Origin: Obrimoposthia wandeli
Lineage: Eukaryota
Reading direction: 5' to 3'
Assembly: GCA_977020255.1 (NCBI GenBank)
Contig: CDROCS010001802.1
Coordinates: 124,001 to 188,000, forward strand
Length of the DNA: 64,000 nucleotides
A program made the position numbers and the translations under genes. Shown here piece after piece: positions 1 through 38,931 of this stretch (positions within the stretch are counted from its first letter, which is position 1; every line of letters begins with the position of its first letter). The notes below the pieces were generated by a model that was not told where the DNA came from, did no database searches, and saw only the letters and a list, made by a program, of their open reading frames with translations.

Positions 1-665
1 CTCCAACCATTATCAAGTATCGTTTTACAAGAAGTGGCTAATCCAGTACCGATAGAACTTTGATTTTCATTTTCTATCAATGTTTTATTTTCTGTATTTG
101 TCGAAAATAAAGTTTCAGAATCATCAGCCCATATATCATAGATAGTTTCAGTTCTATCTTGGTCTTGTGAACAACTTCTTGTTTGATTAAAGCTCTCTCC
201 TAGATTAACAGTTGAAGCTAAAGGACTGAATATGCCACAATCATAATGTACACCATTATCTATCCAAATAGAATATTCAGTTCTTTGAGTGCCTGTATTG
301 TAATTTTCCAAACCTGTTTCGAGATATGAAATAATAGCAGTTATATTTTGATTTTCAATTTTTACTGTTGTTCTTGGTGTTCCGTTGAATATTTCAGTTG
401 TAGTTACTGTTCTTTCTTGTTTTTGTAAGCAGTTTTCATTTTGTGTAAACACTTCTCCAAGAGGGTAGTTATAAGGATTAGACTCTTTTACACAACTAAA
501 CTCAACCCCTTTATCAATCCAACTTGTTGCAACAGGAAGCGAATTTTCAACAATATCATACACATGTTTTTCTTGTGAAATTATGCTAATATAATCATTT
601 GCTTGTACTGTCCCAAATAATATGGTAATTATTGATGTCGCCATCAATTTCTTTCTATAATTCAT
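1..665 (-). CDS. Secreted repeat/fibrinogen-tip adhesin-like paralog, partial (runs off the window start)
   Basis: Not in the ORF track. Manual translation from ATG 665 gives MNYRKKLMATSIITILFGTVQANDYISIISQEK..., one 88-aa repeat, then GTGLATSCKTILDNGW, matching the five neighbouring paralogs. Confidence 0.9.
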   Translation of the reverse strand, partial: MNYRKKLMATSIITILFGTVQANDYISIISQEKHVYDIVENSLPVATSWIDKGVEFSCVKESNPYNYPLGEVFTQNENCLQKQERTVTTTEIFNGTPRTTVKIENQNITAIISYLETGLENYNTGTQRTEYSIWIDNGVHYDCGIFSPLASTVNLGESFNQTRSCSQDQDRTETIYDIWADDSETLFSTNTENKTLIENENQSSIGTGLATSCKTILDNGW

Positions 666-689
666 AATGATCTCTTTTTATTTGTAATA

Positions 690-3314
690 TTATCTTATAA
701 ACCAATTTTGTTTGACAATGGAAACAGAGTCCCAAGCATTAACAACGCCAGCTAAATCTGTTCCATATCCATTTTTCGTTTTCATATCACCAAAGCCATT
801 CCTGTAATTAGCGAAGCCTTGTGGTACGTATGCTGGACCGAAGTGTAAAGTTGAAAACTCTGAACTATCATTACCTAAATAATTAATTCCCATACCTATA
901 TCCCAATTGTTAGAAGCTGTAGCCGAAACGATGTTTCCAGTTCCATCAACAGTTGTTATAGTGTCTGCATACGCATTAGCTAAATACATACCAATACCTG
1001 TATTAACAGTTGTATTAGGAGCTGAAGCATATGACTTAACAGATTGATTATTCTTATTAAGATTTGTACCTTTTATTTTAGATCCTCTACTATAAATCAT
1101 CATGTCATTCCAATCACTATCATTTATGTATGAGCTAATACCTTCGACATCTAGGTTCATAAGTTCACTATTAAAAGGATTGAAAGCTTTAGCTACTACA
1201 TTTGTCATAACAGAACTAGCATCTATAGCTGTAACAATTAATGTCCAACCACCGCCATCTGTTGTCATATCACAATAAGCCTGTTTAGCGGTTGCAGAAG
1301 GATATATATTATATGAACCATCTCCAGAGCTTCCTTGTGAGTTAAGTATTTGTTTACAAGATTTAGCTAGAAAAGAACCAGAATTTATCTTCGCTTCATT
1401 TTCAATTATCGTTTTATTTTCAACTAAAGTGTTATCTATTGTTTCAGAACCGTCAGCCCACATATTATATACAGTTTTAGTTCTGTCTTGATTCTGAGAA
1501 CAATTAGCATTCTGTGTAAATGATTTGTCCTTGTATATTGTTGCAGCGACAGGCGTAAACGTATCACAGGCATAATAAGCGCCATCATCAACCCATTCTG
1601 TGTATTCTATTCTTTGACCACCTGTAGTGAAGTTTTTAGAGCCGATAGCGCTCTGTGTTTCTGATTCATTTAATGTTTGAATTTCTGTGTTTGTATTATT
1701 GATAGTCTCAGAATTATCAGCCCATATATCATAAACCGTTTTTGTTCTTTCTTGATTTTGAGAACAATCTCTATTTTGAGTGAAAGACTCGCCTAAATTA
1801 ATAGTTGATACAAGTGGAGTAAAGTCACTACAAGCATAATGAACACCACTATCTAACCAATTAGTATATTCAGTTCTTTGCGTTCCTGTATTAAAGTTTT
1901 TAGTCCCGATAGAGTTTTGGGTTTCAGATTCAGTTAAGGTTTGGACTTCAACATTTGTACTATTAACAGTCTCAGAATTATCAGCCCATATATCATATAT
2001 TGTTTCTGTTCTATTTTGATCTTGTGAGCAATTACGATTTTGGGTAAATGATTCTCCTAAATTAATAGTTGATACAAGTGGCGAGAAACCTTCACAGTCA
2101 TAATGAACACCATTATCTAACCAATTGGTATATTCAGTTCTTGTTGAACCAGTATTGAAGTTTTTAGAACCAACCGCTTGTTGTGTTTCGTTTTCTGTTA
2201 ATGTTTTCATTTCTATATTTGTAGTGTCAATAGTTTCTGAATTATCAGCCCATATATTGTATATTGTTTTGGTTCTTTCTTGATCTTGAGAGCAATCACG
2301 GTTTTGAGTAAATGATTCGCCTAAATTAACTGTAGTAATTAAAGGACCCCAAGCGGCACAAGCGTAATGTATACCATCGTTTAGCCAAGTGCTGTATTCG
2401 GTTCTTTGAGAACCTGTATCAAAGTTTTTAGTTCCAGTATTATTTTGAGTTTCATTTTCTATTAATGTTTTAGTCTCAGTATTTGTTGAATTAACAGTTT
2501 CAGATCCAGCCGCCCATATATCATAAACTGTTTCAATTCGTGTTTGATCTTGAGAACAATCTCTGTTTTGTATAAAAGATTCATTTAGATTTACACTAGA
2601 TACAAGTGGCATAAATGTAGTACAAGAATAATGCACACCATTGTTTATCCAACCAGTATATTCAAATCTTTGAGTTCCCGTTATAAAATCCTTAGTACCA
2701 ACAGATTGTTGATATTCCAATTCATTTAAGATTCTTTCTTCATTATTTGTAGAATAAAGAGTCTCAGAATTGTCAGCCCATATATCATATATCGTTTCAA
2801 TTCTTGTTTGTTTTTGAGAGCAAGATTTATTCTGAGTAAAGTCTTCATTTAGGTTAACATTAGAAGCAAGTGGGTTAAAACTCCCACAATTATAGTGTAT
2901 TCCTTCATCTGTCCACGTAGAATATTGAGTCCTTTGATTTCCTGTATTGTAGTTTTCTTTACCTGTTTCTAAATACGAAATAACAACAGGGATATTTTGA
3001 TTTTCAGTTTTAACGGTTGTTCTTGATGTTCCATTGAATATTTCAGTTGTGGTTACTGTACGTTCTTGTTTCTGTAAACAGTCTTCATTCTGTGTGAATG
3101 CTACTCCTAGAGGGAAATCATATTCATTAAACTCTTTTACACAATTAAATTCACTACCAATATCAACCCAATTTGTCGCAACAGGAATTGAATTTTCAAT
3201 GATATCATAATCATTTTTTTCTTGCGAAATAATACTGATGTAGTCATTGGCCTGTGATGTTCCAAATAATATAGCTATTATTGATGTAGTTAGTAATGTC
3301 TTTTTATAATTCAT
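690..3314 (-). CDS. Secreted modular adhesin-like protein: signal peptide, six 88-aa Cys-pair repeats, fibrinogen-N-like SC...YCDMTTDGGGWTL module, divergent tip
   Basis: Signal peptide MNYKKTLLTTSIIAILFGTSQA; repeats (K/E)N(F/Y)xTGxQRTEYxxW...C...QNRDCSQDQxR...IWADNSET; C-terminal SCKQIL...YCDMTTDGGGWTL. Confidence 0.85.
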   Translation of the reverse strand: MNYKKTLLTTSIIAILFGTSQANDYISIISQEKNDYDIIENSIPVATNWVDIGSEFNCVKEFNEYDFPLGVAFTQNEDCLQKQERTVTTTEIFNGTSRTTVKTENQNIPVVISYLETGKENYNTGNQRTQYSTWTDEGIHYNCGSFNPLASNVNLNEDFTQNKSCSQKQTRIETIYDIWADNSETLYSTNNEERILNELEYQQSVGTKDFITGTQRFEYTGWINNGVHYSCTTFMPLVSSVNLNESFIQNRDCSQDQTRIETVYDIWAAGSETVNSTNTETKTLIENETQNNTGTKNFDTGSQRTEYSTWLNDGIHYACAAWGPLITTVNLGESFTQNRDCSQDQERTKTIYNIWADNSETIDTTNIEMKTLTENETQQAVGSKNFNTGSTRTEYTNWLDNGVHYDCEGFSPLVSTINLGESFTQNRNCSQDQNRTETIYDIWADNSETVNSTNVEVQTLTESETQNSIGTKNFNTGTQRTEYTNWLDSGVHYACSDFTPLVSTINLGESFTQNRDCSQNQERTKTVYDIWADNSETINNTNTEIQTLNESETQSAIGSKNFTTGGQRIEYTEWVDDGAYYACDTFTPVAATIYKDKSFTQNANCSQNQDRTKTVYNMWADGSETIDNTLVENKTIIENEAKINSGSFLAKSCKQILNSQGSSGDGSYNIYPSATAKQAYCDMTTDGGGWTLIVTAIDASSVMTNVVAKAFNPFNSELMNLDVEGISSYINDSDWNDMMIYSRGSKIKGTNLNKNNQSVKSYASAPNTTVNTGIGMYLANAYADTITTVDGTGNIVSATASNNWDIGMGINYLGNDSSEFSTLHFGPAYVPQGFANYRNGFGDMKTKNGYGTDLAGVVNAWDSVSIVKQNWFIR

Positions 3315-3340
3315 AATTATCTCTTTTTATTTATAATAAT

Positions 3341-3368
3341 ATTGTATTTCATTTAATATTATTGTCAA
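3341..3368 (-). promoter_or_regulatory. sigma70-like promoter TTGACA-N16-TACAAT for the 874-aa paralog
   Basis: Reverse complement reads ttgaca ataatattaaatgaaa tacaat; same layout upstream of four other paralogs. Confidence 0.7.
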
Positions 3369-3489
3369 AGAGGCACAGAAAGAACAGTTAAATATTTAAT
3401 CACTTGTTAATTAAGGTAATGAATATTATTATTTTTTATTATTTATTTTTAAGCATAAAAAAGAATGAACAAATCATTCTTTTTTATAT

Positions 3490-5016
3490 TTATCTAAACA
3501 TCATTCTAGTTGTTTTGTAACTATAATTAAGGGTCGTATTATAACGCCAATTTATATTATATTGGACTGAGCCACTAGTATCTCCATCTATACTATCTAA
3601 ATATAACCCATTTAAATTGGATGTAAAACAACTTCCATGCCACCAAGCTCCGACTCCTAAAAGAGACGCACAATTAGAAGGATGTTCATCATTGTCAACA
3701 TCTTGTGTTGTGAACGGTTTACCAGAGTGATACGCCAAGCTATCACCTTGTGTTCCACTATGACCATCTACAGTTAATGTATATTTACTTGCTTCATTAG
3801 AAATGTTGAAAGTTGAATACCTTGCGTTATAAATAACTCCATTGTGATGACCGAGTTCTACATATAATTCTTTATTTCCGATTGTCATTTCTGCAATAGC
3901 TTCATTTCCTAACCAAAAATTATCTCCTGAACCAAAACCATTTTTATATTCAGACCAATTTTGGTTAAAATTGGAATTAGAAAATCGGCTTTGAAAAACA
4001 GTCCACCCTCCACCGTCAGTGGTCATATCACAAGTAGCACTTTTATTTCCAGAAGGTAAGTTTAATGTATAAATGCCAGAACCAGTGCTCCAACCATTAT
4101 CAAGAATAACTTTACAAGAAGTAGCTAATCCAGTACCAACATTATTTTGTGATTGATCATTTACTAATGTTTGAACTTCCACAATTGTTGTATTAACCGT
4201 TTCAGATGTGTCAGCCCATATATCGTATACTGTTTTAGTTCTATCTTGATCTTGAGAACAATCTCTATTTTGTACAAGAGGTTCATTTAATCTTAATGTG
4301 TTTGTAAGAGGAATCCAATCAGTACAGGAATGAATAGCGCCATTATTTAACCATTCAGTATATTCAGTTCTTTGTGAACCAGTAATGAAGTTTTTAGTGC
4401 CAACCGCTTCTTGATATTCTAATTCATTTAGATTTCGTTCTTCATTATTTGTAGAAAAAAGAGTTTCTGAGTTATCAGCCCATATATCATAAACCGTTTC
4501 AGTTCTTGTTTGTTTTTGAGAACAAGATCTATTTTGCGTAAACACTTCATTTAGATTTATAGTATTAATAAGTGGAGAAAAATCGCCACAAGCAAAATGA
4601 GAGCCATCATCTATCCAGTTAGTATATTCTGTACGTTTTACTTCGGTGTTATAATTTTCCAATCCAGTATCAATATATGAAATAATTACAGGTATATTTT
4701 GATAATCAGTTACAATGGTAGTTCTTGGTGTACCATTAAAAATTTCAGTTGTGGTAATTGTTCTTTCTTGTTTTTGTAAGCAGTTTTCATTTTGAGTAAA
4801 TGTTACTCCTAGAGGGAAATCATATTCATTAAACTCTTTTACACAATTAAATTCACTACCAATATCAGCCCAATTTGTCGTAATGGGAAGCGAATTTTCA
4901 ACAACATCGTAAACGTGTTTTTCTTGCGAAATAATACTAATATAGTCATTTGCTTGTGATGTTCCAAATAATATCGCTATTATTGAAGTAGTTAGTAATG
5001 TTTTTTTATAATTCAT
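3490..5016 (-). CDS. Secreted repeat protein with two 88-aa repeats and a complete fibrinogen C-terminal (FReD) domain
   Basis: Start re-set to MNYKK at 5016 by paralog alignment and RBS-like AAAAAGAG. FReD motifs GGGWTVFQSR, W-x-EYKNGFG, FWLGN, FTTQDVDND, GAWW, SNLNGLY. Confidence 0.9.
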   Translation of the reverse strand: MNYKKTLLTTSIIAILFGTSQANDYISIISQEKHVYDVVENSLPITTNWADIGSEFNCVKEFNEYDFPLGVTFTQNENCLQKQERTITTTEIFNGTPRTTIVTDYQNIPVIISYIDTGLENYNTEVKRTEYTNWIDDGSHFACGDFSPLINTINLNEVFTQNRSCSQKQTRTETVYDIWADNSETLFSTNNEERNLNELEYQEAVGTKNFITGSQRTEYTEWLNNGAIHSCTDWIPLTNTLRLNEPLVQNRDCSQDQDRTKTVYDIWADTSETVNTTIVEVQTLVNDQSQNNVGTGLATSCKVILDNGWSTGSGIYTLNLPSGNKSATCDMTTDGGGWTVFQSRFSNSNFNQNWSEYKNGFGSGDNFWLGNEAIAEMTIGNKELYVELGHHNGVIYNARYSTFNISNEASKYTLTVDGHSGTQGDSLAYHSGKPFTTQDVDNDEHPSNCASLLGVGAWWHGSCFTSNLNGLYLDSIDGDTSGSVQYNINWRYNTTLNYSYKTTRMMFR

Positions 5017-5042
5017 AATTATCTCTTTTTGTTTATAATAAT

Positions 5043-5070
5043 ATTGTATTTGATTTAAGAATATTGTCAA
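5043..5070 (-). promoter_or_regulatory. sigma70-like promoter TTGACA-N16-TACAAT
   Basis: ttgaca atattcttaaatcaaa tacaat on the minus strand. Confidence 0.7.
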
Positions 5071-5138
5071 AACACTATATTTTAAGAATAAAAAAGAGCG
5101 ATAGTTAATCACTCTTTATATTATTGATGAATTAATCT

Positions 5139-6398
5139 TTATCTAAACATCATTTTTACACTTTTATAACTATAAAGATGTCCATGTCCATGATACCAAT
5201 TAAGTCCGTTTTCGATACCAGAATAATTGCCATCTTTGTATATTCCGTTTAAATTAGAAAAATAACATCTATTATGCCACCAAGCCCCATTATAATTAAC
5301 AGCACAGTTAACAGATTCATGAAGATCATTATCAACATCTTTTGTCGTGAAAGCCATTCCTGAATGGTATGTTAAAGAATCACCATTGTTTCCACTAAAC
5401 CCAGAAACAGTTAACATATACTGACTTAATTCATTTCCGACATTAAAAGTATCATATTTGGCGTAATAGACAGTCCCATCGTGATGTCTAAAGTCTATAT
5501 ATAATTCTTTATTACCTACTGTCATTTCTGCAATTAAATCATTGCCAAGCCAAAAATTTCCTTCTGAGCCGAATCCGTTTTTGTATTCGATCCAGTTTTT
5601 ATAAAAATCTGTATCAGATACTCTACTTTGGAAAACAGTCCAACCACCACCATCAGTAGTCATATCACAAGTAACATCTTTGTTCCCAGAAGGAAGGTCT
5701 AATGTATAAACTCCATCTCCAGTGCTTAATCCATCATCCAATATATTTTTACAAGACAATCCTAATATAGAGGGTTTAGTTCCAATTGCAATTTGTGATT
5801 CGATTTCTATTAAAGTTTTAGTTTCTGTTTCGGTGCTGCTAATGGTTTCAGAATTGTCTGCCCATATATTGTATATATTTTTAATTCTATCTTGATTTTG
5901 AGAACAATTACGATTTTGGGTAAATGACTCTCCTAAATTAACGGTTGAAATTAATGGAGCAAAATTATTGCACGAATAATGAACTCCATTATCAATCCAA
6001 GCAGTATATTCAGTTCTTTCGACTCCAGTATTGAAATTTTCTTTGCCGACATCAATATAAGAGACAACGATATCCTTATTTTGATAATCAGTTACAACGG
6101 TAGTTCGAGGTGTACCATTAAAAACTTCAGTTGTTGTAATTGTCCTTTCTTGCTTTTGTAAACAATTTTCATTTTGAGTAAATTCTTCTCCTAAAGGATA
6201 GTTATATTCACTAAATTCTTTAATACAATTAAACTCGCTACCAACATCGATCCAATTTGTCGCAACGGGAATCGAATTTTCAACAACATCGTAAACGTGT
6301 TTTTCTTGAGAAATAATACTTATATAATCATTTGCTTGTGAATAACCAAATAATATGGCTATTATTGATGTGGTTAGTAATTTTTTTTTATAATTCAT
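5139..6398 (-). CDS. Secreted repeat protein with one 88-aa repeat and a complete FReD domain
   Basis: Same N-terminus; GGGWTVFQSR, WIEYKNGFG, FWLGN, FTTKDVDND, GAWWHNRCYFSNLNGIY. Confidence 0.9.
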   Translation of the reverse strand: MNYKKKLLTTSIIAILFGYSQANDYISIISQEKHVYDVVENSIPVATNWIDVGSEFNCIKEFSEYNYPLGEEFTQNENCLQKQERTITTTEVFNGTPRTTVVTDYQNKDIVVSYIDVGKENFNTGVERTEYTAWIDNGVHYSCNNFAPLISTVNLGESFTQNRNCSQNQDRIKNIYNIWADNSETISSTETETKTLIEIESQIAIGTKPSILGLSCKNILDDGLSTGDGVYTLDLPSGNKDVTCDMTTDGGGWTVFQSRVSDTDFYKNWIEYKNGFGSEGNFWLGNDLIAEMTVGNKELYIDFRHHDGTVYYAKYDTFNVGNELSQYMLTVSGFSGNNGDSLTYHSGMAFTTKDVDNDLHESVNCAVNYNGAWWHNRCYFSNLNGIYKDGNYSGIENGLNWYHGHGHLYSYKSVKMMFR

Positions 6399-6424
6399 AA
6401 TTGTCTCTTTTTATCTATAACATT

Positions 6425-6452
6425 ATTGTATTTTATTTAGTGATATTGTCAA
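6425..6452 (-). promoter_or_regulatory. sigma70-like promoter TTGACA-N16-TACAAT
   Basis: ttgaca atatcactaaataaaa tacaat on the minus strand. Confidence 0.7.
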
Positions 6453-6544
6453 AATAGTATTTTTATAAATATTTTTATAAATATTTTTTCAAATAAAAAA
6501 GAGCAATATATTATCACTCTTTTTATTATTTATAATTTTATTTT

Positions 6545-8575
6545 TTATCTAAACATATAGAATAATTTTGTACCATTGACCGTTGACTTATTTCTGTGCC
6601 AGCCGTTAAGGTGTGCATAAGCTCCAACTCCACGAGGGTCTATTTTAATAGACGTTATATATGCATTTTCAGAATATTGATGATATTCAGGTTTATTTAG
6701 AAGTCCACAGTTGTCAGTGCCTTCAGTTCCGCTACAATAAACTCTTGGGAAGTTCCCATTAAAATGTATACTTACAACAGTGTTATTCCAACCATTCATC
6801 ATTTCAACTTTTGTTTCGTTGATTAAGTCTATTGATTTATAAGTAATGCTTGAAGGATTTATGCTATCATCAGCTTGCATATTCATAATCCAATCTGTAT
6901 CTAATCCATTTTCTGACGATATGTTTTTTATATATGCCATATTAATCAAATCTTCCGCTGATAATATTTCGATGTCATATGAGCCATCATTAATATTAAC
7001 GAGATTATAAGTAGTATCAGTACCAAAAGTAGTCCAACCACCGCCATCAATCGTCATATTGCAAGATACATTATATGATTTGGTATTATTAATGATTTCA
7101 TAAACACCGTCACCATTACTTCCTGAATGATTTAGTATATCCAAACAAGATTCAGCCAAATAAGTACCAGTCGCAATTTGAGATTCATTTTCACTTACTA
7201 TTTGTGATTCTGAACTTGTTGAATTAATAGTTTCAGTTCCATCAGCCCATAAGTCAACAATAGTCATTGTTCTATTTTGGTTTTGTGAACAACTTCTATT
7301 TTGTGTAAAATCAGTTTCATTATATATTGTAGGAATAAGTGGAGCGAAAGTACCACAATCATAATGAGTCCCGTTATCTAACCACTCTGTATAATCCGTT
7401 CTTTGTTCGCCAGTTATAAAGTTCTTTGTCCCTGTTGAAATTTGTTCTTCATTCTCAATAAGTGTTTGCGTTTCTACATCGGTAGAAGATAGTGTTTCAG
7501 AATTATCAGCCCATATATCATATATGTTTTTAGTCCTATCTTGGTCTTGTGAGCAATCTCTATTTTGAGTAAATGAACTACCTAAATTAACAGTTGTCGT
7601 AAGTGGAATAAATGTATTACAACCGTAATGAGAGCCATTATCTAACCACTCTGTATACTCAGTTCTTTGAGTTCCAGTATTAAAGTTTTTAGTACCGATT
7701 GAATCTATTTCTTCATTTTCTATTAAAGTTTGTAATTCTATGTTTGTATTATTAAGCGTTTCAGAACCATCAGCCCATATATCATAAACTGTTTCTGTTC
7801 TGTTTTGATCCTGAGAACAATCTCTGTTCTGTTTGAATGTATCACCTAAATTAATAGTAGATTTTTCAGGTAAGAAGTTGCTACAAGAATATAATCCCCC
7901 ATTATTAATCCAGTTAGTATATTCAGTTCTTTGTACGCCAGTGTTGAAATTTAAAGTACCAATTGCAGGTTGTGACTCATTTTCATTTAATGTTCTAACT
8001 TCCGTATCTGTTGAATAGAATGTTTCAGAATTATCAGCCCATATATCATAAACAGTCTCAGTTCTTTTTTGATCCTGAGAACAATTCCTATTTTGTGTAA
8101 ATGATTCATCTAGATTGATTGTTGAAACAAGTGGGGAAAAATCACCACAAGCGTAGTGAGAACCATTATCTATCCAATTAGTATATTCTGTACGTTTTAC
8201 TTCAGTGTTATAATTTTCTAAACCAGTGTCTAAATATGAAACAACAACAGGTATGTTTTGATGATCAGTTACAACGGTAGTTCTTGGTATACCATTAAAA
8301 ACCTCAGTTGTTGTAACTGTTCTTTCTTGTTTTTGTAAACAGTTTTCATTTTGCATAAATGATTCGTTTAAAGGGTAATCATACGCATTAAACTCTTTAA
8401 CACAATTAAATTCATTTCCAATATCGATCCAGTTTGTAGCCACAGGAAGAGAATTTTCAACAACATCATAAACATGTTTTTCTTGCGAAATTATACTTAT
8501 ATAGTCATTAGCTTGCGCTGTTCCAAATAATATTGTTATTATTGATGTGGTTAGTAATGTTTTTTTATAATTCAT
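6545..8575 (-). CDS. Secreted repeat protein with four 88-aa repeats, fibrinogen-N-like module and a unique tip
   Basis: MNYKK start at 8575 (ORF track starts at 8581); SCLDIL...SCNMTIDGGGWT followed by sequence unrelated to the other tips. Confidence 0.85.
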   Translation of the reverse strand: MNYKKTLLTTSIITILFGTAQANDYISIISQEKHVYDVVENSLPVATNWIDIGNEFNCVKEFNAYDYPLNESFMQNENCLQKQERTVTTTEVFNGIPRTTVVTDHQNIPVVVSYLDTGLENYNTEVKRTEYTNWIDNGSHYACGDFSPLVSTINLDESFTQNRNCSQDQKRTETVYDIWADNSETFYSTDTEVRTLNENESQPAIGTLNFNTGVQRTEYTNWINNGGLYSCSNFLPEKSTINLGDTFKQNRDCSQDQNRTETVYDIWADGSETLNNTNIELQTLIENEEIDSIGTKNFNTGTQRTEYTEWLDNGSHYGCNTFIPLTTTVNLGSSFTQNRDCSQDQDRTKNIYDIWADNSETLSSTDVETQTLIENEEQISTGTKNFITGEQRTDYTEWLDNGTHYDCGTFAPLIPTIYNETDFTQNRSCSQNQNRTMTIVDLWADGTETINSTSSESQIVSENESQIATGTYLAESCLDILNHSGSNGDGVYEIINNTKSYNVSCNMTIDGGGWTTFGTDTTYNLVNINDGSYDIEILSAEDLINMAYIKNISSENGLDTDWIMNMQADDSINPSSITYKSIDLINETKVEMMNGWNNTVVSIHFNGNFPRVYCSGTEGTDNCGLLNKPEYHQYSENAYITSIKIDPRGVGAYAHLNGWHRNKSTVNGTKLFYMFR

Positions 8576-8600
8576 AATCATCTCTTTTGTTTATAATAAT

Positions 8601-8628
8601 ATTATATTTCATATAAAATAATTGTCAA
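8601..8628 (-). promoter_or_regulatory. sigma70-like promoter TTGACA-N16-TATAAT
   Basis: ttgaca attattttatatgaaa tataat on the minus strand. Confidence 0.7.
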
Positions 8629-8666
8629 AAATCAAATTATTTTAATCACTAAATAAATTATTATCA

Positions 8667-9896
8667 TTATCTTACCCAAAAGCTAAACTGGTTTGCTGTA
8701 CATTGTCTGCTACCATTGTGTGTATATGGATTTGTTACAATAGGACAAGTATCTGCTTCATACATCTTAAATTGCCCTAAACTCCACCACCAACTATTAG
8801 TTTGACTTCCATATTTTGCATGTCCATAACTATGCTGTACTAATCCAAAACCATTTAGGCTTTGTAATCCTGGTTCGGTTGTACTTAATATCTGAAAACC
8901 AGCAGGGACTGTAACTGAAGTATCCCCATTATTCGCAATAACTGAAGCATCTTGCTTAAAAATCGTATGGTTATATGTTGTAGTGGTTCTGTAATTTTTA
9001 TACATATATTGATTGTTGGTTTTTATATCATCGACTTTACCTAATATAGAATAAAGGTTACTGTTAGAATCTGGGTTAGATGCATTAAAATTTAGATTAT
9101 TAGATTCTGTAAACCAATGGTTTAATTTCTGACTCATTAATAATGTCCAACCACCACCATCTGTAATCATGTCGCAATACACATTTATATTATCACTTCC
9201 TGTTTGATTAATAGTGTAGTTACCACTCAATGTTTCACCACTGTTCAATAATGCTAAACATGAAGTCAAAACAAGAGTTCCTGTCGCATTTCGAGTTTCA
9301 TTTTCGTTTAAAACTGTTGTTTCTAAGTCACTAGAAAATAAGGTTTCTGTATTATTAGCCCATATATCATAAACAGTTTTTGTTCGTTCTTGATTTTGAG
9401 AACAATCTCTATTTTGTTCAAATGATTCGCCCAGATTAACAGTTGATACAAGTGGTGCAAATGTACCACAAGAATAATGAATACCTTCATTTAACCAAGT
9501 CGAATATTCAGTTCTTTGAGTGCCAGTCTTATAATTATCCAGACCAGTTTCTAAATATGAAATAACAACAGGAACATTTTGATTTTCAACTTTTACAGTT
9601 GTTCTTGGTGTACCATTAAAAACCTCAGTTGTTGTAACGGTTCTTTCTTGTTTCTGCAAACAATTTTCATTTTGAGTAAAAGACTGACCTAAAGGAAAAT
9701 CATAGGCACTAAACTCTTCAACACAGCTAAACTCTGTGCCTATATCAAGCCACTCTGTTGCTACAGGCAATGAGTTTTCAACGACATCATAGATATGTTT
9801 TTCTTGCGTAATGATACTAATATAATCATTTGCTTGAGTTGTTCCAAACAATATTGCTATGATTGATGTTGTTATTAACGTTTTTTTATAATTCAT
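8667..9896 (-). CDS. Secreted repeat protein with one 88-aa repeat, fibrinogen-N-like module and a unique tip
   Basis: Same signal peptide and N-domain; SCLALL...VYCDMITDGGGWTL...NLYSILGKVDDIK. Confidence 0.85.
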   Translation of the reverse strand: MNYKKTLITTSIIAILFGTTQANDYISIITQEKHIYDVVENSLPVATEWLDIGTEFSCVEEFSAYDFPLGQSFTQNENCLQKQERTVTTTEVFNGTPRTTVKVENQNVPVVISYLETGLDNYKTGTQRTEYSTWLNEGIHYSCGTFAPLVSTVNLGESFEQNRDCSQNQERTKTVYDIWANNTETLFSSDLETTVLNENETRNATGTLVLTSCLALLNSGETLSGNYTINQTGSDNINVYCDMITDGGGWTLLMSQKLNHWFTESNNLNFNASNPDSNSNLYSILGKVDDIKTNNQYMYKNYRTTTTYNHTIFKQDASVIANNGDTSVTVPAGFQILSTTEPGLQSLNGFGLVQHSYGHAKYGSQTNSWWWSLGQFKMYEADTCPIVTNPYTHNGSRQCTANQFSFWVR

Positions 9897-9921
9897 AATA
9901 CTCTCTTTATTTTATAATATT

Positions 9922-9949
9922 ATTGTATTTTATTAAAAAGTATTGTCAA
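9922..9949 (-). promoter_or_regulatory. sigma70-like promoter TTGACA-N16-TACAAT
   Basis: ttgaca atactttttaataaaa tacaat on the minus strand. Confidence 0.7.
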
Positions 9950-10067
9950 AATTATAAGAAAAACGTTGATTATGTAATAGGAAAAAACAAAGATAAGAAT
10001 TAATGGAATTTTAAGCAAAAAAAAGAGTGATATGAAATCACTCTTTAGAAATTGTTTATTTTCGAGA

Positions 10068-10442
10068 TTAGCCAGTTAAGAACTTACTTAAATCTTCTCT
10101 AAAAATCATACAGGATAACCCGACCATAACAAAGAATACCATTAAATAGTCAGCGATAAGAATATTGGTATCTTTTAGATAAAAGAATTGGATTAATAAA
10201 GAAATGATTAAACTAAAAGCGTAAGTAGCAACAGTTAATACAACATAACTATATTTAAATGAACCTGCGCCAAAAAAATATGACATCATTGTGTTGGCAA
10301 TGATCCCAGTTGGAATTGTCATCAAACCAATTGTAAAAGCGACCGAAAGCGTCATTGCCTGATCACCAGATTTATTCATTGCAATTATATTAGGTACTTG
10401 AATACATATCATAGAAACGAGTAGAGCGAACCATATAGCCAT
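10068..10442 (-). CDS. Small multi-pass membrane protein
   Basis: 124 aa with about four hydrophobic segments. Confidence 0.7.
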   Translation of the reverse strand: MAIWFALLVSMICIQVPNIIAMNKSGDQAMTLSVAFTIGLMTIPTGIIANTMMSYFFGAGSFKYSYVVLTVATYAFSLIISLLIQFFYLKDTNILIADYLMVFFVMVGLSCMIFREDLSKFLTG

Positions 10443-14499: not shown

Positions 14500-15786
14500 A
14501 TGTTTTCTTTTAGAAAAGTTAAAAATATAGTATTTTCCCATATCAAAGGTTCAAACTTTGAACTTGTTGGTGATGATTCAAACATAAAAAAAGATACTGA
14601 TTTAAATGCTTTTTTTAATTTGAGACAGTCTGGTGATACCCTTACTATTACAAGTAAATCGGATGAAGAGTTAAAACAAGCGGGATATAATGCTGAAGGT
14701 AATTCCCCTCTTTTAGTCGGAAAATTCAAGAGCGAAAAAAAGATAAATACTTTTTTCAATATAAATCAGAAAAACATTGAATCAATTACATTTCAAAATT
14801 GTAATCTACAAATTAGATCAAGTGGTAAAGATTTATATTCACCGAAAATTATTACAAAAAAATCAACACTTAATATTAAACGTTATTTTAAAGATGAATT
14901 AAATCTTGAATTGTCTGAATCAAAAGTTTATATGACCAATTCTTTATTTGTTAAAAGACTTTACTTAAACGCTTCTAAAGGTTCTAGAGTTCTTGTTGAC
15001 GAGGCTTTTATTGTAGATGCCTATATTTATGTCGATAGCTGTCAATTACACGGATGCTCAAATGTTAGATTCTATCGTGGAGCTTTTTGTAACAACGCAA
15101 CAATTGGATTAAGCTATAGTGCAAAACTGTTAATAAACGTAATTCAAAAGTTAACATATTGTATGTATAAACAAAACTCATTAATTTTAAATGGAGAACC
15201 AGATGTAAACAATTACGCAAATTTCCAAATTGGTGGAATAACTAGCTCATTACATTCTGTTTATCCAAGTTCAGCCCCAGTAAGGGGTAAAGGTCAGTCT
15301 CAAGATTTTAATCAAATAAATGTAAGAGATTTATCAGATGAAGAAATCGAATCAGCTTATGTGTTTTCGATATTAAAACAGGAAATCAGATATCCAGTAA
15401 GCCTAGATGTTCATTTTAAAGAAATGAATGAATTAAGAGACGCTTTTAAAGAAGAAAAGAAACTGTTGGCAAAAGAAAAAGAACAAGATCCCAACATTGA
15501 AATAGACCCTAAAATAATGAAAATATTAGAAAAAATAGCAAAAGAAGAACTTGAAGAAGAATTGAAAAATGAGAAAGAAATTGATTCGGAATTATTTATA
15601 TTAGATCTGTTAGGATCTGAAAATCCCACAGATGTAATAGATTCAGAAAATAGAGAATATGTAATTGAATCTATGAAATACATAATGGATAAGAAAGTAA
15701 AACTAACAGAAAAACAACTTAAAAATAAAGATAAACTTTGTCAATTATTTGATATTAAGTATTATGGAAAATCTGTTATTTTTTAA
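14500..15786 (+). CDS. Paralog family A member 1 (possible DUF2807/GIN-like beta-helix plus conserved helical C-terminal domain)
   Basis: Periodic I/L-x-I/L-x-x-S strands; C-terminus LGSENPTDVIDSENR...NKDKLCQLFDIKYYGKSVIF shared with three other ORFs. Confidence 0.7.
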   Translation: MFSFRKVKNIVFSHIKGSNFELVGDDSNIKKDTDLNAFFNLRQSGDTLTITSKSDEELKQAGYNAEGNSPLLVGKFKSEKKINTFFNINQKNIESITFQNCNLQIRSSGKDLYSPKIITKKSTLNIKRYFKDELNLELSESKVYMTNSLFVKRLYLNASKGSRVLVDEAFIVDAYIYVDSCQLHGCSNVRFYRGAFCNNATIGLSYSAKLLINVIQKLTYCMYKQNSLILNGEPDVNNYANFQIGGITSSLHSVYPSSAPVRGKGQSQDFNQINVRDLSDEEIESAYVFSILKQEIRYPVSLDVHFKEMNELRDAFKEEKKLLAKEKEQDPNIEIDPKIMKILEKIAKEELEEELKNEKEIDSELFILDLLGSENPTDVIDSENREYVIESMKYIMDKKVKLTEKQLKNKDKLCQLFDIKYYGKSVIF

Positions 15787-15810
15787 AAACAAACAATAAA
15801 TAGGTGACAA

Positions 15811-17127
15811 ATGATTTCATTTAGAAGAATAAAACATATAACATTTGAGAATGTTTGGAATGAACATATTAAGTTCGTTGATAAAAAATCAAACATTAAA
15901 GACAATGATGTGTTAAAAAATAATTTCACTATTTCTCAAAAGGGAAATAGATTGTTTATTTGTCAAAATAGAAGGACGAATAAAGAAACCTTAGATTTAA
16001 ATATAAGAGGGATAAAGAGTATACATCTTAATAACTCAACTTTATATATTGATGAAATTACAGAAGATAAGGAATCACCGCCACTTACTTTACTTAATTC
16101 AAAATTGTTTGTAGAAAAACTTTTTCAAAAAGCACTAAACTTTAAGTTAAATAAATCTACAATAATAATCGAAGAAATATTCTCTTATGATTTTGATGTT
16201 TCAATAAGTAAAAGTTCAGAACTTAGAGTGAAAAACGGGTTTATTAAAAACGTATTCATTGAAATGGATAACAAAGAATTAATAAATTCTTCTACTGTTG
16301 TTTTTGGTAGAGAATCTTTCGTGCAAAAGGCAGAATTATTATTAGGAGAATACGAAAAAGTTAAAATAAATGTTATGGATGAGCTTAAATATAGTATGAG
16401 TGTAAATAACTCTTTAATTCTTGCAGGTGATCCAGAAATCATTAATTTAGGGGATTCGAAAAACTCAAAAGTTAATATAAAAAAAGCAAGAGATGTTAAA
16501 TTTGGATATGATAAAGCAAACATAAAAAAAATGACTGCTTTTCATATAAATAAGTCATTTAATATTTCTGTTGCAACAAGGGTTTTAAATTATCCATTAT
16601 TATTGAAATACAATATTGATGATAATGCAAAAAATAAACGAAATTATTCTGAAAAAAGGAAGAATGAGCATATTGAGGCAAATAAACGTGAGAAACTATC
16701 ATTAGAAAAAGAGAAATTATTTCTTAAAGAAGTAAATAAATCTAAAATTAAGATGATGGAAATAGAACAACTTGCTAAAGAAAGAAAGATGAAAATATCG
16801 GAAGAAAGAAAGAGTATTATGGACAAAGCAATGAAATCTGAGTTTGATTTAAAAGATGCTGAATATAAAATGAAGATCGAAAGAGAAAAATATAAATCAT
16901 CAATTATAAACGACAACCAAAAAGACTATGGTTTAAAATTACTAGATTTACTTAAAATGGATTCACCGACTGATGATATAACGTCCAATAATAGAGCTTA
17001 TTATATTACAGCGATAGAAGATTCATTTAAAAATAAAGTAACATTAAACTCAGTTCAAAAAGAGAACAGAAAGCGTTTGTGTCAGTTGTTTAGAATTAAA
17101 TATGATAAACCATCAGTTATATTTTAA
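15811..17127 (+). CDS. Paralog family A member 2
   Basis: MISFRRIKHITF start; C-terminus MDSPTDDITSNNR...NRKRLCQLFRIKYDKPSVIF. Confidence 0.7.
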   Translation: MISFRRIKHITFENVWNEHIKFVDKKSNIKDNDVLKNNFTISQKGNRLFICQNRRTNKETLDLNIRGIKSIHLNNSTLYIDEITEDKESPPLTLLNSKLFVEKLFQKALNFKLNKSTIIIEEIFSYDFDVSISKSSELRVKNGFIKNVFIEMDNKELINSSTVVFGRESFVQKAELLLGEYEKVKINVMDELKYSMSVNNSLILAGDPEIINLGDSKNSKVNIKKARDVKFGYDKANIKKMTAFHINKSFNISVATRVLNYPLLLKYNIDDNAKNKRNYSEKRKNEHIEANKREKLSLEKEKLFLKEVNKSKIKMMEIEQLAKERKMKISEERKSIMDKAMKSEFDLKDAEYKMKIEREKYKSSIINDNQKDYGLKLLDLLKMDSPTDDITSNNRAYYITAIEDSFKNKVTLNSVQKENRKRLCQLFRIKYDKPSVIF

Positions 17128-17256: not shown

Positions 17257-17826
17257 ATGAAAAAATATTTAACAATAATAATCTTAAGCCTTTCAAGTCT
17301 TTCAATGGCTGATACATATCAAGTGGTGATAAATAAATCGAACTATACTGTTTCTGATAACATTATTGATGACGGGGATAAAGAATATAATACTTTACTA
17401 GATGAATTTCTTGCTGTAAGTACAAACGCACAATATATTTATGGTTCTAGCATAGAGGAAACAGTATTTAAGCCAGATAGCTATATGCAAGTTAGATATA
17501 CTAATACATTGAATATATCCATAAAATTAAAAGAAGAAAAGATTGTTAAAGGAATTAGACTTTACCATGACGATGCTTTTATGCCATATCGTAAAAAAGC
17601 AACTATTTTTAGTGCTTATTCACAATCGACCCATTCAGGAAATTTAATACCTAGTAGTGGATGGAATCTTCATGAAACAATTAACATTCCTGTATTAGAA
17701 AGCCTTAAATATAAAGATTTTATGTTTTCAACTCCTATGGAAAAAACAAATGCATTTCATTTTTCATTTTATGGATCTTCTGAAAATGGTTATCAAGGGT
17801 TGCAATATATACAATTTTTATATTAA
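17257..17826 (+). CDS. Secreted protein, possibly a discoidin/galactose-binding-like beta-sandwich
   Basis: Signal peptide MKKYLTIIILSLSSLSMA; ISIKLKEEKIVKGIRLY resembles an F5/8-type strand (weak). Confidence 0.6.
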   Translation: MKKYLTIIILSLSSLSMADTYQVVINKSNYTVSDNIIDDGDKEYNTLLDEFLAVSTNAQYIYGSSIEETVFKPDSYMQVRYTNTLNISIKLKEEKIVKGIRLYHDDAFMPYRKKATIFSAYSQSTHSGNLIPSSGWNLHETINIPVLESLKYKDFMFSTPMEKTNAFHFSFYGSSENGYQGLQYIQFLY

Positions 17827-21064: not shown

Positions 21065-21835
21065 TTAATCAATTATAAATTCAACATATCTTTTCTTTCC
21101 AGTATTTGGATCTAAATCAACACTTAAATCAATGTCTCCGTTATTTCTTCTAACATCTTCATATTCAAATTTTAAACCATCTGCAAAATACTTATTTTTT
21201 CCAGTAATAAATTTAAATTTGAATGTCCCTTCATAGTAGCTTAATCGTCTATAAGTTGATGATATTCTTTTATCGTCATTCCAATAAATCTTATCTGGTG
21301 CTCCTACTATCATATCTTCGTGTTCCATTAAATTACCATAATCAATGATAAAATCAGGTCCCATTGGGTTAGAAATTTTTAATTCATATATTTTCTTTGA
21401 ATATTCATTTAGTTCTAATAAAGTATCAAAACTAAGAACATTATAACTATACATATAATCAATGACGGTTGTTCTTTCTGAACCTTCTATGTACTTTAGG
21501 ACTTGTACTGTTTCTTTTTCTTCATCAACTTCAAATCCTAAATCACGAATATACTTAATAGTTAAAGCCAATTTTTCTTTTCGGGATTCTTCTTTTTTTA
21601 ATTCTCTATTTTTAATAAACTCAAGACCTTTATCATAATCTCTTTTGATAAGAATTCGTTCTTCTTCTGTTTTTGAAGGAATAACCTTTGATTCATTTAC
21701 GAATTTTTTAGCTTCAACTTTAGGTGTATCTAGAGTTGGGGGGCTTTTAGGTACACTCGATTGATTGAGCAAGGAATAGATACCTCCACCGATGAGAGAG
21801 ATTGCTAATATTGAAATAATTACCTTTTTGATCAT
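21065..21835 (-). CDS. Membrane-anchored or secreted protein, near-duplicate of 28185-28961
   Basis: About 90% identical over the first ~164 aa and the last 21 aa, with a divergent block between. Confidence 0.85.
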   Translation of the reverse strand: MIKKVIISILAISLIGGGIYSLLNQSSVPKSPPTLDTPKVEAKKFVNESKVIPSKTEEERILIKRDYDKGLEFIKNRELKKEESRKEKLALTIKYIRDLGFEVDEEKETVQVLKYIEGSERTTVIDYMYSYNVLSFDTLLELNEYSKKIYELKISNPMGPDFIIDYGNLMEHEDMIVGAPDKIYWNDDKRISSTYRRLSYYEGTFKFKFITGKNKYFADGLKFEYEDVRRNNGDIDLSVDLDPNTGKKRYVEFIID

Positions 21836-22012
21836 GATTAAACCTTTTTGTCTTTAACTATAGGAATATCATAATTTTTATATAAAGAAAGACACAAGTA
21901 AATGTGCCTTTCTAGTTGTTTTAAAGTTAAACAATGTTTTTTTTATTTAATTTGATTAAAAATATCAAAATGGCTTAATAAATAATAATTAATATAAAAA
22001 GATTTGTAAATA

Positions 22013-25000
22013 TTATTTATATATAATTATTTCTCTTCCATCCTTTTTTAATTTATAAAAAGAACTCATTTCAACAAACTCATAAGAAGGATAAGTATGC
22101 TCTGTAATTAATGGTGTGTCTATTCCTACATATTTAATTGAAACTTTTTCAACATTAAAGAACGGATTAAGTACAACAGAGGACGTAATATTAACATTTT
22201 TACCTGACAACAAACTAAACGTTGAATCAGTAGTAATGTTCATATCGTCATTACCTGTAATTTTTGTTCCATAACCTATAATATTGATATCGGATTTACC
22301 ATCTAAAGTAATGTCACAATGAGCTGTTGAGTTAATAACATTATTTTCGCTATGAAAAATAAGTTCAGCAGAACCATTATTTAATGAAATATCTGCATTT
22401 CCTACAATATCAAAGTTTAATTTTTCATTAGAAAAATTGTTATTCTTAAATACAACGCTACCTGTTGATTTTATTGTCCCTGAACCTCTTTTGTTATCCT
22501 CTCCATATGTTCCGTAATCTTGAAGAATATCGTATCCATTTATAATAGCATTACCAGTTCCCAGACTTATATTAAAATTATTTAAATTAGTTAAATTTAT
22601 AATGGAGTCTCCATTTAATAAAACGGCTTTCAAATCGACAGGTCGATCATCTTCTCCAATAACATTTATATTTTTAATACCAGTTCCAACATTTAAATTA
22701 ATATTTTCAAAATTAGATATACCTAAAGTTATTTTGCCATCACCTAATTTTGCAGTGAAATCGCCTCGTTTTGCAATGAAATCGCCTCGTTCTTCTATTC
22801 CAGAATCAGCATTTATTATTTTATCACCATTTTTTGATGTAATATTTACAATCTTATAGTTATTTGATTCAATATTTAATACTTCAGTGCTCGGTGTTAT
22901 ATTTAAAATACCATTACTACCTTCTTTTATTGTTTTAAAGGTTTGTGAACCATCGTTAGAAACAATATTAATATCTTGAACATTTAATAGCTTAAAATCT
23001 AAATTACGTTCACCTAAATCAGTAGTTAATTTTTCGGCACGTTTAATATCTACAGTTTGAACTCCTGATATCCCAGTTAAAACAATATCCTTATAATCTG
23101 ATATGATTATTGTTGCATCTGTTTCACTTAGATTAGCATTGAAAGATTCATTTGTTCGAGTTGCTTCATCTGTTTTTACTGCCGTAATATTTTGAGTTCC
23201 TGTTCCAAATGTTAATTCTACATTTGTATAATCTTCAAGAGAAATCACAGCATCACCTTCTAAAAATTTTGTTTTTAAAGATGTTTTATTTAATGCTTTT
23301 CCAGTTAGTATATTATTACCCTTAATCGAATTAATTGTATATTTATTAAAAAATGAATGATTCAATGTTTTATCACTCTTTTCAATATTTATATTGTTAT
23401 TTCCTTCTCCAAGATTTATTTCACCTGTGAATGTTATATTTTCGAATTTTAGAGTTTTATTTCCTTTTTCAAAGTTAAACTTTACATCATTTATATAACT
23501 ATTTTTAATATCCATAGTGTCATTGCCACTGTACAACTCGAAATCAATTAAATTTAATTGAGAATTTGATATCGTGATTTTGTCAATATCTTGTGTGTTT
23601 TTACTGCCTCTTATATAATCTCTATCTGAAATATTATCACTTGTGGCTTTAATATAATTTTCAAAATTAACTATATTATTTCCTTCACCCAATGAAACAT
23701 CTAATTTATTACCATAGTTATATAGATTTAATGTATCATCACCTGTTCCTGCCGTTAAATCTAATGACGTGTTATTGAATGAAAACTCATTGTTTCCACC
23801 CGAATCTATAAATACATTAGAAAACTCTAAAGAAGTATTAGAGACATTAACAATATCCTTATCAATACCAGAAATGACATTTAAATTATAATTAGATGAA
23901 GTTAATGTATTTTCACCATTCCCAAGATTAATATCAGCAGTAGCATTAGATACTTTAGATGAATTATAACTACTCCCAATAAGGTTTACGATGTCGTTAC
24001 CGCCATTTAAATAAAGGTCGGTATTATATTTTTCAATATGAATATTGTCAATTCCCGCACCGCCATTTATTTTCACTAGCGAACCACCAATTTGATTACC
24101 ATCAATATCTTTTACACTATAATTTATATGTCCAAGAGAATTAATAATAGAGGCAGTATTGTTTCCTTCACCTAAATCAATATCAAAGTTAATAAAATTA
24201 TTAATATTAACAGTATCATTTCCACCAAAGGTTTTAATAATATCTGGTTTTGATTTATACAATTCATAAGAACTGTAATAAGAATTATTAGGGTCATATT
24301 TTATATTATTAGAATATATGGTTTCATTTCCTCCATTACCAGTATAGTCATTAGAAAAATATGTATTTAAATGTGTAACATTATTATCAGATGTAGATAT
24401 AATGTTATTTATAGGTGTAACTTTGTTAATCATATCGGAAAGTTTTATAGTTTTAGATATGTTTTCAAAATGTAAATTAACGTCAAACTTAGACCACTTT
24501 TTAAAATACATTCCAAAAAAATCATCAATTTTTAAAAAATTATTACCATCTATTGCTATAATTAAATCATTTTTACTCTCTTCCGAACTTGTACCTGATT
24601 TAAATGTGATATTATTAGAAGTTACTTCTCCCTCTATAATGACATTAATACCTTCATTCTCTGTATCTACATTATAGTTTTCATTCTGATCTCTATAGTT
24701 TGCCAATTCATCTTGAATAATTTGCAATATTCGATCTTCTTCATTAGCATCATCTTCAATTTTTTTTAATTCTTCAAGCCTTTTTAATTCCTCAAGAACT
24801 TCGTTATCAACAGGCTCTTCATTGTCAACAGGCTCTTCATTGTCAACAGGCTCTTCATTATCAACAGGCTCATCATTGTCAACAGGCTCATCATTGTCAA
24901 CAGGCTCTTCATTGTCAACAGGTTCTTCGTTATCAACAGGTTCTTCGTTGTCAACAGGTTCTTCGGTGCAATCATTTCCTGCACAGATTTCTTTTTCTGT

Positions 25001-25087: not shown

Positions 25088-25107
25088 TTTTTATTTTTTC
25101 CTATTGT

Positions 25108-28167: not shown

Positions 28168-28184
28168 TTCATATTCCTTTTTAA

Positions 28185-38923: not shown

Positions 38924-38931
38924 GAGTTATA

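Follow-up and report, generated by a model that had tools for sequence, protein, structure and literature searches.

Stalked proteins with exchanged, fibrinogen-type heads as a candidate recognition repertoire on a likely bacterial megaplasmid

Several described systems carry binding domains at the end of a pilus or fibre. In IncI shufflon plasmids (R64, TP114), variable pilus tips set the range of recipients, as set out in part of PMC9045228. A second arrangement is that of TcpF-TcpB and CofJ-CofB, in which, according to the passages of PMC9565799 drawn on here, TcpF and CofJ attach to a trimer of minor pilins by an aromatic segment at their N-terminus; their signal segments are mutually dissimilar, with no common sequence. 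A third is the MAT family of Bdellovibrio, a mosaic fibre repertoire that gives broad prey recognition (PMC10769870, in part). We describe here a stretch of 64,000 bp, hereafter the window, which spans positions 124,001-188,000 of a 2,185,102-bp contig (C1802) in the 1.35-Gb assembly of Obrimoposthia wandeli, an assembly holding many bacterial contigs. The window opens with six tandem genes for stalked proteins that differ in their tips. We propose that they belong to a set of about 60 predicted secreted stalk-head proteins whose heads are swapped by ordinary recombination, and which dock on the tip of a plasmid-encoded pilus and bind glycans of recipient cells; we hold this to be probable, if only just.

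The family is conceptually akin to all three systems and a member of none. With the PilV shufflon it shares a plasmid, here a likely conjugative one, with Dot/Icm-type transfer and a type IV pilus, as well as the plan of a constant N-terminal part followed by variable C-terminal binding domains (PMC9045228, in part). In contrast to the shufflon, the array has no sfx-like site, adjacent Rci or silent cassettes; its genes are whole, co-oriented, apparently promoted separately and predicted to be Sec-exported rather than prepilins, and the variants number about 60 as against 7-8 in the same source. TcpF and CofJ are matched by a predicted Sec-exported soluble protein with an aromatic segment directly past the signal peptide, on a plasmid with type IVb-like secretins and fibre-bearing minor pilins. 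Those systems have one cargo each (PMC9565799, in part), whereas about 65-75 are marked here, and the candidate minor pilins here end in a phage tail-collar fibre. The MAT family likewise offers a chimeric-fibre repertoire with diverse tips and broad recognition of bacterial surfaces, but consists of chromosomal, trimeric, phage-like fibres, where we find predicted monomeric beta-ribbon stalks and fibrinogen-type heads on a plasmid (PMC10769870, in part).

An earlier note on this stretch had described six tandem paralogs with a near-identical signal peptide and "N-domain" and with 1, 6, 2, 1, 4 and 1 copies of an 88-aa repeat. Six minus-strand open reading frames (ORFs) were located as it had described, and the copy numbers were reproduced exactly, the full repeats beginning at residue 124 with a period of 88 aa. 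The N-terminal similarity was also borne out (72-83% identity among the six over residues 1-120; 78-95% over residues 1-40), while the "N-domain" resolved into a signal peptide, a motif of about 18 residues (the N-motif) and an extra divergent repeat, R0, which is why a hidden Markov model (HMM) counts 2, 7, 3, 2, 5 and 2 repeats in genes 1-6. The array extends beyond the window to nine genes (contig positions 114,688-133,896), broken by two unrelated small ORFs. Contigs from short-read run X1 show zero differences from the window in the eight longest pieces listed, so the array is real and an assembly artefact is rejected as its source. An origin as an animal gene or from nucleocytoplasmic large DNA viruses is rejected by the bacterial promoters, the signal peptides and the type IV secretion system. 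The features of the array are as follows, subdomain A denoting the junction between stalk and tip.

3..665, minus strand: 5' part of gene 1 (full length 415 aa), truncated at the window edge.
L002:9418-9999, outside the window: ficolin-like head and junction of gene 1, the junction lying 82 bases beyond the window edge.
690..3314, minus strand: gene 2 (874 aa), with signal peptide, N-motif, R0, six repeats, subdomain A and a unique tip.
1242..1274, minus strand: CDMTTDGGGWT codons of gene 2, at which the P0016/120418 identity stops (a GGGW-type crossover).
1362..2945, minus strand: the six 264-bp stalk repeats of gene 2.
3490..5016, minus strand: gene 3 (508 aa), with R0, two repeats and a full ficolin-like (Fibrinogen_C) head.
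5139..6398, minus strand: gene 4 (419 aa), with R0, one repeat and a full ficolin-like head.
6545..8575, minus strand: gene 5 (676 aa), with R0, four repeats, subdomain A and a tip.
8667..9896, minus strand: gene 6 (409 aa), with R0, one repeat, subdomain A and a tip.
9777..9830, minus strand: mature N-motif of gene 6, the first ~18 residues past the predicted signal peptide and a candidate docking tag.
17257..17826, plus strand: N-motif protein standing alone (189 aa), lacking both a stalk and a GGGW head.

All six proteins pass through the GGGW junction, as the note had held, that of gene 1 being outside the window. Judged by its profile match, this junction is an already annotated domain, fibrinogen-like YCDxxxxGGGW or fibrinogen subdomain A (NF040941), which scores 41-60 bits in five of the six window proteins against a curated cut-off of 30 bits; gene 1, truncated at the window edge, scores in a separate search. 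Genes 3 and 4 match PF00147 (Fibrinogen_C) over positions 4-219 of 221, including the Ca-loop and the second disulfide, and the head of gene 1 falls in the same BLAST class. The best ficolin match of these full heads is H-ficolin (2j5z; E 2e-46), with an alignment running end to end through the terminal strand. Subdomain A and the ficolin heads are thus the known parts of the family. The Pfam match of the tips of genes 2, 5 and 6 is limited to subdomain A.

The terminal hydrophobic-x-Arg/Lys motif of ficolin closes 53 of the 58 heads compared, and the tips therefore start and end ficolin-like while their interiors differ. Among 36 tip groups, 630 profile comparisons with HHalign gave a single one above 50% probability, that of gene 6 with the 241757 class (96%); the gene 6 tip is distantly related to this 241757/243920 class, and no homolog of its head was found among 62 candidates. 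The claim of at least four unrelated tips in the array accordingly needs rewording: four types are present and are unrelated by BLAST and HHalign, yet most heads end in the ficolin-like terminal-strand motif. In contrast to the fibrinogen-related domain of ficolins, the family has about 35 other tip classes with such unrelated interiors, and a new 88-aa repeat takes the place of the collagen stalk.

Structure prediction, one of the checks that the note had suggested, produced models of the stalk and failed for the tips. AlphaFold gave the first two stalk repeats a predicted local distance difference test (pLDDT) score of 70-93, each with a pair of 22-23-residue strands, while the gene 5 head scored 36 and the gene 6 tip below 50, with no readable fold. 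A Foldseek search with the stalk fold returned no match at E <0.001, and a PDB sequence search none for the stalk profile or for a short pilin. The best structural resemblance, to G5 and thrombospondin type 1 repeats, is weak (VIA Z 3-4, maximum 4.0), and Pfam TSP1_2 gave only summed weak matches. The stalk shares with the G5/E repeats of SasG and Aap and with TSP1 repeats a predicted extended three-strand ribbon, Trp, Arg and two Cys; it differs from them in its repeat length of 88 aa and its long strands, and matches neither significantly in sequence or structure. If the repeat is extended as modelled, repeat number would set the reach of the stalk.

The array is a small part of a plasmid-wide family. 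Contig-wide counts, and the HMM and motif searches reported below, cover about 94-95% of C1802. HMMs built from the array, including the search with the 88-aa repeat that the note had proposed, identify 64 genes, of which 56 carry the N-motif, 43 the repeats and 48 subdomain A; the head-bearing genes have 0-8 repeats each. The 49 heads first found (48 unique, one being a terminal-overlap duplicate) fall into 36 BLAST tip classes, and the tip of stalked members that lack GGGW is a LamG, Calx-beta, ILEI or DUF285 domain. The note's adhesin-like reading fits the ficolin, LamG, Calx-beta, TSP_C, ILEI and DUF285 tips. Our literature search found no account of this family or replicon and no prior description of the stalk repeat, the plasmid-wide N-motif or the size of the repertoire; the supplementary tables of the pMEGA preprint, in which the multicopy "shufflon/pilin" SF2096 is a possible related family, may bear on all of these.

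The leader is signal-peptide-like in all six array proteins, by sequence pattern, and is predicted to be Sec-type. The N-motif that follows it occurs on 75 of 394 signal-peptide-like ORFs, compared with 6.7 +/- 2.4 in shuffles and with 23 of 1779 other ORFs. About 10 of the 25 matches without stalk or head look like false membrane-protein matches, and the motif probably marks about 65-75 predicted secreted proteins on C1802. Three prepilin-type proteins on the same contig consist of a pilin, a fibre, a tail collar, degenerate stalk repeats (E 3e-7 to 4e-6) and a tip. Over 450 aa, the distal part of one prepilin (1701740) has 50% identity with 1678175, a free protein carrying the N-motif, and three further free proteins are 40-44% identical over about 266 aa to the distal part of another (858173). 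Fusions of stalk repeats to pilins are also seen elsewhere (P0050, P0088, P0134). Because free and pilin-fused proteins share distal modules, the N-motif may take the place of the pilin-fibre base, which suggests that the stalk-head proteins are displayed at a pilus tip.

Under this proposal, Sec export and disulfide folding would yield a stalk in the form of an extended beta-ribbon, to which each repeat adds roughly 7 nm, as estimated from the 22-23-residue strands. The N-motif would then substitute for the pilin/tail-fibre base of the three fused versions and act like a type IVb pilus secretion signal. The heads would differ in the glycans they bind and together form a broad, co-expressed set for recognition as opposed to one switched adhesin, and their targets would be cell-surface glycans, most likely those of mating recipients; we infer this role in recipient range because shufflon pilus tips and the Bdellovibrio fibre repertoire serve as models. 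A more specific version, in which a short N-tag loads about 70 adhesins on a pilus with tail-fibre-like minor pilins, and the whole forms a plug-in mate-recognition library with dozens of reshuffled lectin heads, taken from a pool that phages and CPR (candidate phyla radiation) bacteria also use, is put forward tentatively and is, as a whole, rather doubtful.

Several observations weigh against display on a pilus and recognition of recipients. On C1802 the tips fused to pilins are TSP_C and Calx-beta, and GGGW heads were not seen in such fusions. Most family genes lie away from pilus genes, 56 of them being spread over 32 clusters, and the pilin-like gene beside a Vibrio vulnificus homolog is a weak match (E 0.008). 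The likeness of the N-motif to TcpF and CofJ is weak, consisting of an aromatic segment after a predicted Sec signal, with no sequence likeness to compare. The 88-aa repeat, judging by the company it keeps, is a generic spacer, because it occurs on proteases and other surface proteins too. Self-transfer of C1802 is itself presumed from a type IVB secretion system and a coupling protein, because no relaxase was found, the TrwC family having been tried. Binding to animal surfaces would fit the ficolin heads equally well. Complex prediction of the N-terminal part of gene 6 with a trimer of the short minor-pilin fibre, run without alignments, gave 0.00 and is evidence in neither direction.

Two further observations concern pilin-like genes. 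At L014:1333-8614, four of them lie directly upstream of two family genes. Three pairs of short and long prepilin-type proteins (L087:1173-4514; L161:783-6146; L162:7781-9730 with L280:1-3915) end in or contain a phage tail-collar fibre with an HxH motif, and in the long members stalk repeats follow, and then a TSP_C or Calx-beta tip.

Relatives of the array proteins occur elsewhere too. Gene 5 matches at least 560 representative proteins at E <=0.001; among its best 150 matches, stalk repeats reach 30 copies per protein, and in the 46 of these that were scanned with Pfam the repeats are fused to S8 proteases, FG-GAP, RCC1 and Ig domains and pilins. Among 72,556 plasmid records, gene 2 has matches in 14. 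These are without exception Vibrio or Pseudomonas plasmids of 300-970 kb, including pMPPla107; ten match through the repeats and four through the last repeat and subdomain A. No orthologous array was present among the matches listed in a metagenome scan, which were generic GGGW matches. Related heads recur in other settings, namely a 5374-aa protein with 19 tandem GGGW heads, several of them 32-59% identical to plasmid heads (L214:3569-19693), a phage tail-fibre region in which stand-alone heads with 43-53% identity to plasmid heads lie amid tail-fibre genes (L243:5048-10885), and CPR-like loci. This distribution is consistent with a shared pool of surface-binding domains. Within the same assembly, contigs C418, C425, C1539, C1925, C3585, C5872 and others have many NF040941 matches with in-frame TGA; they represent co-assembled bacteria that decode TGA as a residue and are rich in this domain.

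Where related heads occur matters to the alternative that survives best, which accepts export and head shuffling as above and sees in the proteins colonisation factors, encoded by the plasmid, with which the host bacterium would hold on to animal tissue, mucus or particles. In its favour, full ficolin-like domains make up three of the window heads, Calx-beta, TSP_C, LamG and DUF285 occur among the other tips, the assembly that contains the contig is associated with an animal and includes many bacterial contigs, and the closest docking model, TcpF/CofJ, consists of colonisation factors (PMC9565799, in part). Dozens of unrelated tips on a conjugative replicon would nevertheless suit many bacterial surfaces, as in the case of shufflon PilV (PMC9045228, in part), and the occurrence of related heads beside phage tail-fibre genes and in CPR-like loci also speaks against an animal target. 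We consider colonisation unlikely, though the most probable of the alternatives.

Less probable again are freely secreted or periplasmic binders, such as decoys against phage fibres or animal lectins, or type II-like cargo, for which the N-motif would be a folding or export element. The long stalk would make little sense on a free decoy, and C1802 also encodes the same stalk-tip modules in covalent fusion with minor pilins, even though no membrane anchor, lipobox or hydrophobic segment past the signal peptide was found in the array proteins (maximum hydropathy 0.6-1.3), the N-motif is also present on small proteins without stalk or head, and the plasmid encodes several secretins. Pfam and NCBIfam scans found no N-methylation (prepilin) motif in the array proteins.

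That tips are exchanged between stalks, as the note had claimed, is upheld by several comparisons. The neighbour test covered the 54 of 65 proteins with a same-tip partner, 12 near-duplicates, the overlap duplicate and the two-headed gene having been dropped. The nearest neighbour belonged to the same tip class in 39 cases for subdomain A, 23 for the last repeat, 16 for the first repeat and 14 for the N-terminus; subdomain A usually moves together with the tip. P0004 and 1362789, for example, are 89% identical in the tip and 93% in subdomain A, compared with 30% in the last repeat and 29% at the N-terminus. Gene 5 (130545) shares 77% of its tip and 91% of subdomain A with the one-repeat protein P0026 as against 25% of the first repeat, which places the crossover within the repeats, while 117386 and P0068 are 79% identical in the tip and 49% in subdomain A. 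In approximately unbiased (AU) tests on a tree of 41 N-terminal parts, grouping by tip class was rejected for three of four classes (p 0.0004, 0.0007 and 0.0002). The fourth test did not reject stalk-tip congruence (p 0.41) and counts against exchange, as does the fact that the groups were picked after the identity tables had been seen and the tree was a quick one. On balance the incongruence in these alignments and trees shows that heads are exchanged between stalks, with heads, heads plus last repeat, or tips alone having moved.

The note had further singled out the GGGW junction as the recombination point. Some crossovers do fall there, as CDMxxGGGW is where ancestry switches between 117386 and P0068, P0093 and 205518, and gene 2 (124690) and P0016. 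Others lie at the start of the last repeat (gene 5 against P0026, by alignment), at the hinge before subdomain A (P0004 against 1362789; P0005 against 395385) and in mid-subdomain A (P0074). The motif is, as these alignments read, the most distal of several homology islands used and not a dedicated recombination point. Synonymous identity is 438/835 (0.52) at the motif, below the 2217/3277 (0.68) of residues 1-40 and the 0.64-0.68 elsewhere, and GGGW is for this reason not a DNA-level site. Unequal homologous exchange may instead occur at any shared island, whether repeat, hinge, mid-subdomain A or CDMxxGGGW, and exchange within the repeats would alter stalk length simultaneously. A RecA-like ORF is present on C1802.

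The mosaics that change ancestry at CDMxxGGGW, together with nine exact 20-32-bp matches between paralogs in subdomain A, could also be read as traces of a programmed site-specific exchange point, similar to a shufflon or a diversity-generating retroelement, with high-frequency switching of tips. This is very unlikely. Third positions at the motif vary freely, no paralog pair on the plasmid exceeds 88% over 60 bp, and 16 heads compared with 94% of the contig gave no template match above 87%. A pattern search of the same 94% found no reverse transcriptase motif; motif matching gave two tyrosine recombinases (793 kb and 1141 kb), both more than 600 kb from the array, and a comparison of the ORFs flanking it with PHROG gave no recombinase match. 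Every gene is full-length and has a promoter-like site of its own. In a strain of about 98% identity from another study, stalk-head pairing is unchanged in genes 4, 5 and 6, where contigs bridge the junction. As site, template, reverse transcriptase and nearby recombinase were not found and the ~98% strain keeps the pairing, head exchange is evolutionary, not a fast switch. The comparison of orthologous loci that the note had called for thus gave unchanged pairing in these three genes at this distance, and at the orthologous locus L185 the tip of 1676149 is kept with one repeat instead of four.

Variation of another kind was seen in run X3. One contig links the end of gene 2, through 38 other bases, to a spacer like 3315-3494 (window 690-3494); in the window that place is taken by gene 1, 25 bp away and lacking a -35 box. 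This hints at rearrangement of the array between strains. In the same run the gene 3 head and the gene 2 N-terminus are thinly covered, at 94%.

Expression signals are consistent with genes that function as separate units. The sites concerned are listed below.

3341..3368, minus strand: promoter-like site of gene 2 (TTGACA-N16-TACAAT).
5043..5070, minus strand: promoter-like site of gene 3.
5093..5117, minus strand: terminator-like hairpin 3' of gene 4.
6425..6452, minus strand: promoter-like site of gene 4.
8601..8628, minus strand: promoter-like site of gene 5, 12/12 consensus.
9922..9949, minus strand: promoter-like site of gene 6.

Positions 1-10,100 contain 74 promoter-like sites where 59 are expected, and the evidence therefore lies in position, not count: the five best each sit just ahead of one of genes 2-6. 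Of the 60 family genes examined for this site, 15 have it in front of them, compared with 9 of 1885 other genes. Its location ahead of gene 3 favours the ATG at 5016 over the GTG at 5112 as the start of that gene. Gene 1 has no -35 box of its own and is likely co-transcribed with gene 2. Each gene forms a cassette of promoter-like site, predicted signal peptide, N-motif, 0-8 repeats and head. Since the genes are whole, each with its own promoter-like site, the family is best read as a co-expressible repertoire and not a one-at-a-time switch.

The note had attributed the array to a mobile element, and C1802 agrees with this in its Dot/Icm and pilus genes and its overlapping ends. The end of the contig repeats its start in three blocks of 93-98% identity (offset ~2,134,760-2,134,930; ~50 kb of terminal overlap), which implies a circle of about 2.135 Mb; by this overlap C1802 is likely circular. 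It has 28% GC, 2173 ORFs and 176 tRNAs, with transfer genes for IcmL, IcmK, DotM, DotA (two copies), IcmB/DotO and a coupling protein, and pilus genes comprising a type IVa set, type IVb-like PilN-type secretins, PilB/PilT-type ATPases and a prepilin peptidase. No match to RpoB, L3 or terminase was found on C1802, and six rRNA motifs and four EF-Tu/S12/L2/RpoC motifs are absent from about 95% of it. The contig yielded no TrwC-family relaxase, other relaxase families and Rep proteins not having been searched. By this gene content it is likely a pMEGA-like, conjugative bacterial megaplasmid. The pMEGA elements are likewise circular, AT-rich and ORFan-rich, with tRNA blocks, Dot/Icm, pilus genes and multicopy families (10.1101/2025.09.30.679422, in part); C1802, at about 2.13 Mb, is about a third larger than their maximum of 1.58 Mb, and the word "fibrinogen" is absent from the main text of that preprint in the version drawn on. 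Megaplasmids pMPPla107 and pBASL58 (PMC6482414, in part) are comparable, pMPPla107 encoding a stalk-repeat protein. IcmB of C1802 is <=37% identical to any PLSDB record, scans of GTDB and viral contigs gave no relatives, and an MsbA-like gene (57-59% identity) points to Gammaproteobacteria and no finer. A 16S search of the assembly scored only 43 of 1122 candidates.

The reading of C1802 as a giant phage with the proteins as its virion fibres, a role the note had allowed, is scarcely credible. In its favour, C1802 is rich in ORFans, AT and tRNAs, related heads occur in the L243 tail-fibre region and the pilin-fused proteins carry tail-collar domains. Against it, all six array proteins have predicted Sec-type signal peptides, Dot/Icm and pilus systems are present, terminase is unmatched and gene 2 has zero matches in 50,697 phage records and in viral contigs. 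By analogy with the systems introduced at the outset, we favour recipient recognition over animal-surface colonisation, free decoys, programmed switching and virion fibres.

Other features of the replicon and window were recorded in passing. The tRNAs of C1802 are grouped in blocks of one isotype each (e.g. 14 Lys, 16 Leu, 11 Glu), and two with a CTA anticodon, at 269,960 and 1,876,335, are called Pyl by ARAGORN and are possible amber suppressors. The contig has two pilus systems and also encodes gyrase, DnaE, SecA/SecD, FtsZ-like and RecA-like proteins. Within the window, four paralogous proteins of ~430 aa share a C-terminal motif (14500-17127, 38851-40071, 43854-45155), and two paralogous small membrane-anchored proteins flank two secreted proteins of ~1020 aa (21065-28961) whose Gly/Asp-rich repeats look type I secretion-like by eye. 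At 46411-49317, an aminotransferase-like gene precedes one for a multi-domain enzyme of 638 aa whose C-terminus looks methyltransferase-like by eye. An HlyD-like fragment lies at 56127-56420, and a TnpB-like (IS200/IS605) ORF, by eye, at 57555-58820, with a near copy at contig position 1,191,811.

The carrier, which has 176 tRNAs, is at about 2.13 Mb larger than the pMEGA elements, for which at most 1.58 Mb is given. The 88-aa stalk repeat is newly defined and so far unannotated (at least 560 representative proteins match gene 5), and about 35 uncharacterised, predicted binding domains on a fibrinogen subdomain-A base are candidate new lectins. How megabase plasmids find and choose their recipients, and why they carry large multicopy protein families, are open questions. 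The repertoire described here would offer a testable answer to both, namely whole-gene, co-expressible adhesins without a shufflon switch, for which a candidate docking tag and specific candidate partners on the pilus can be named.

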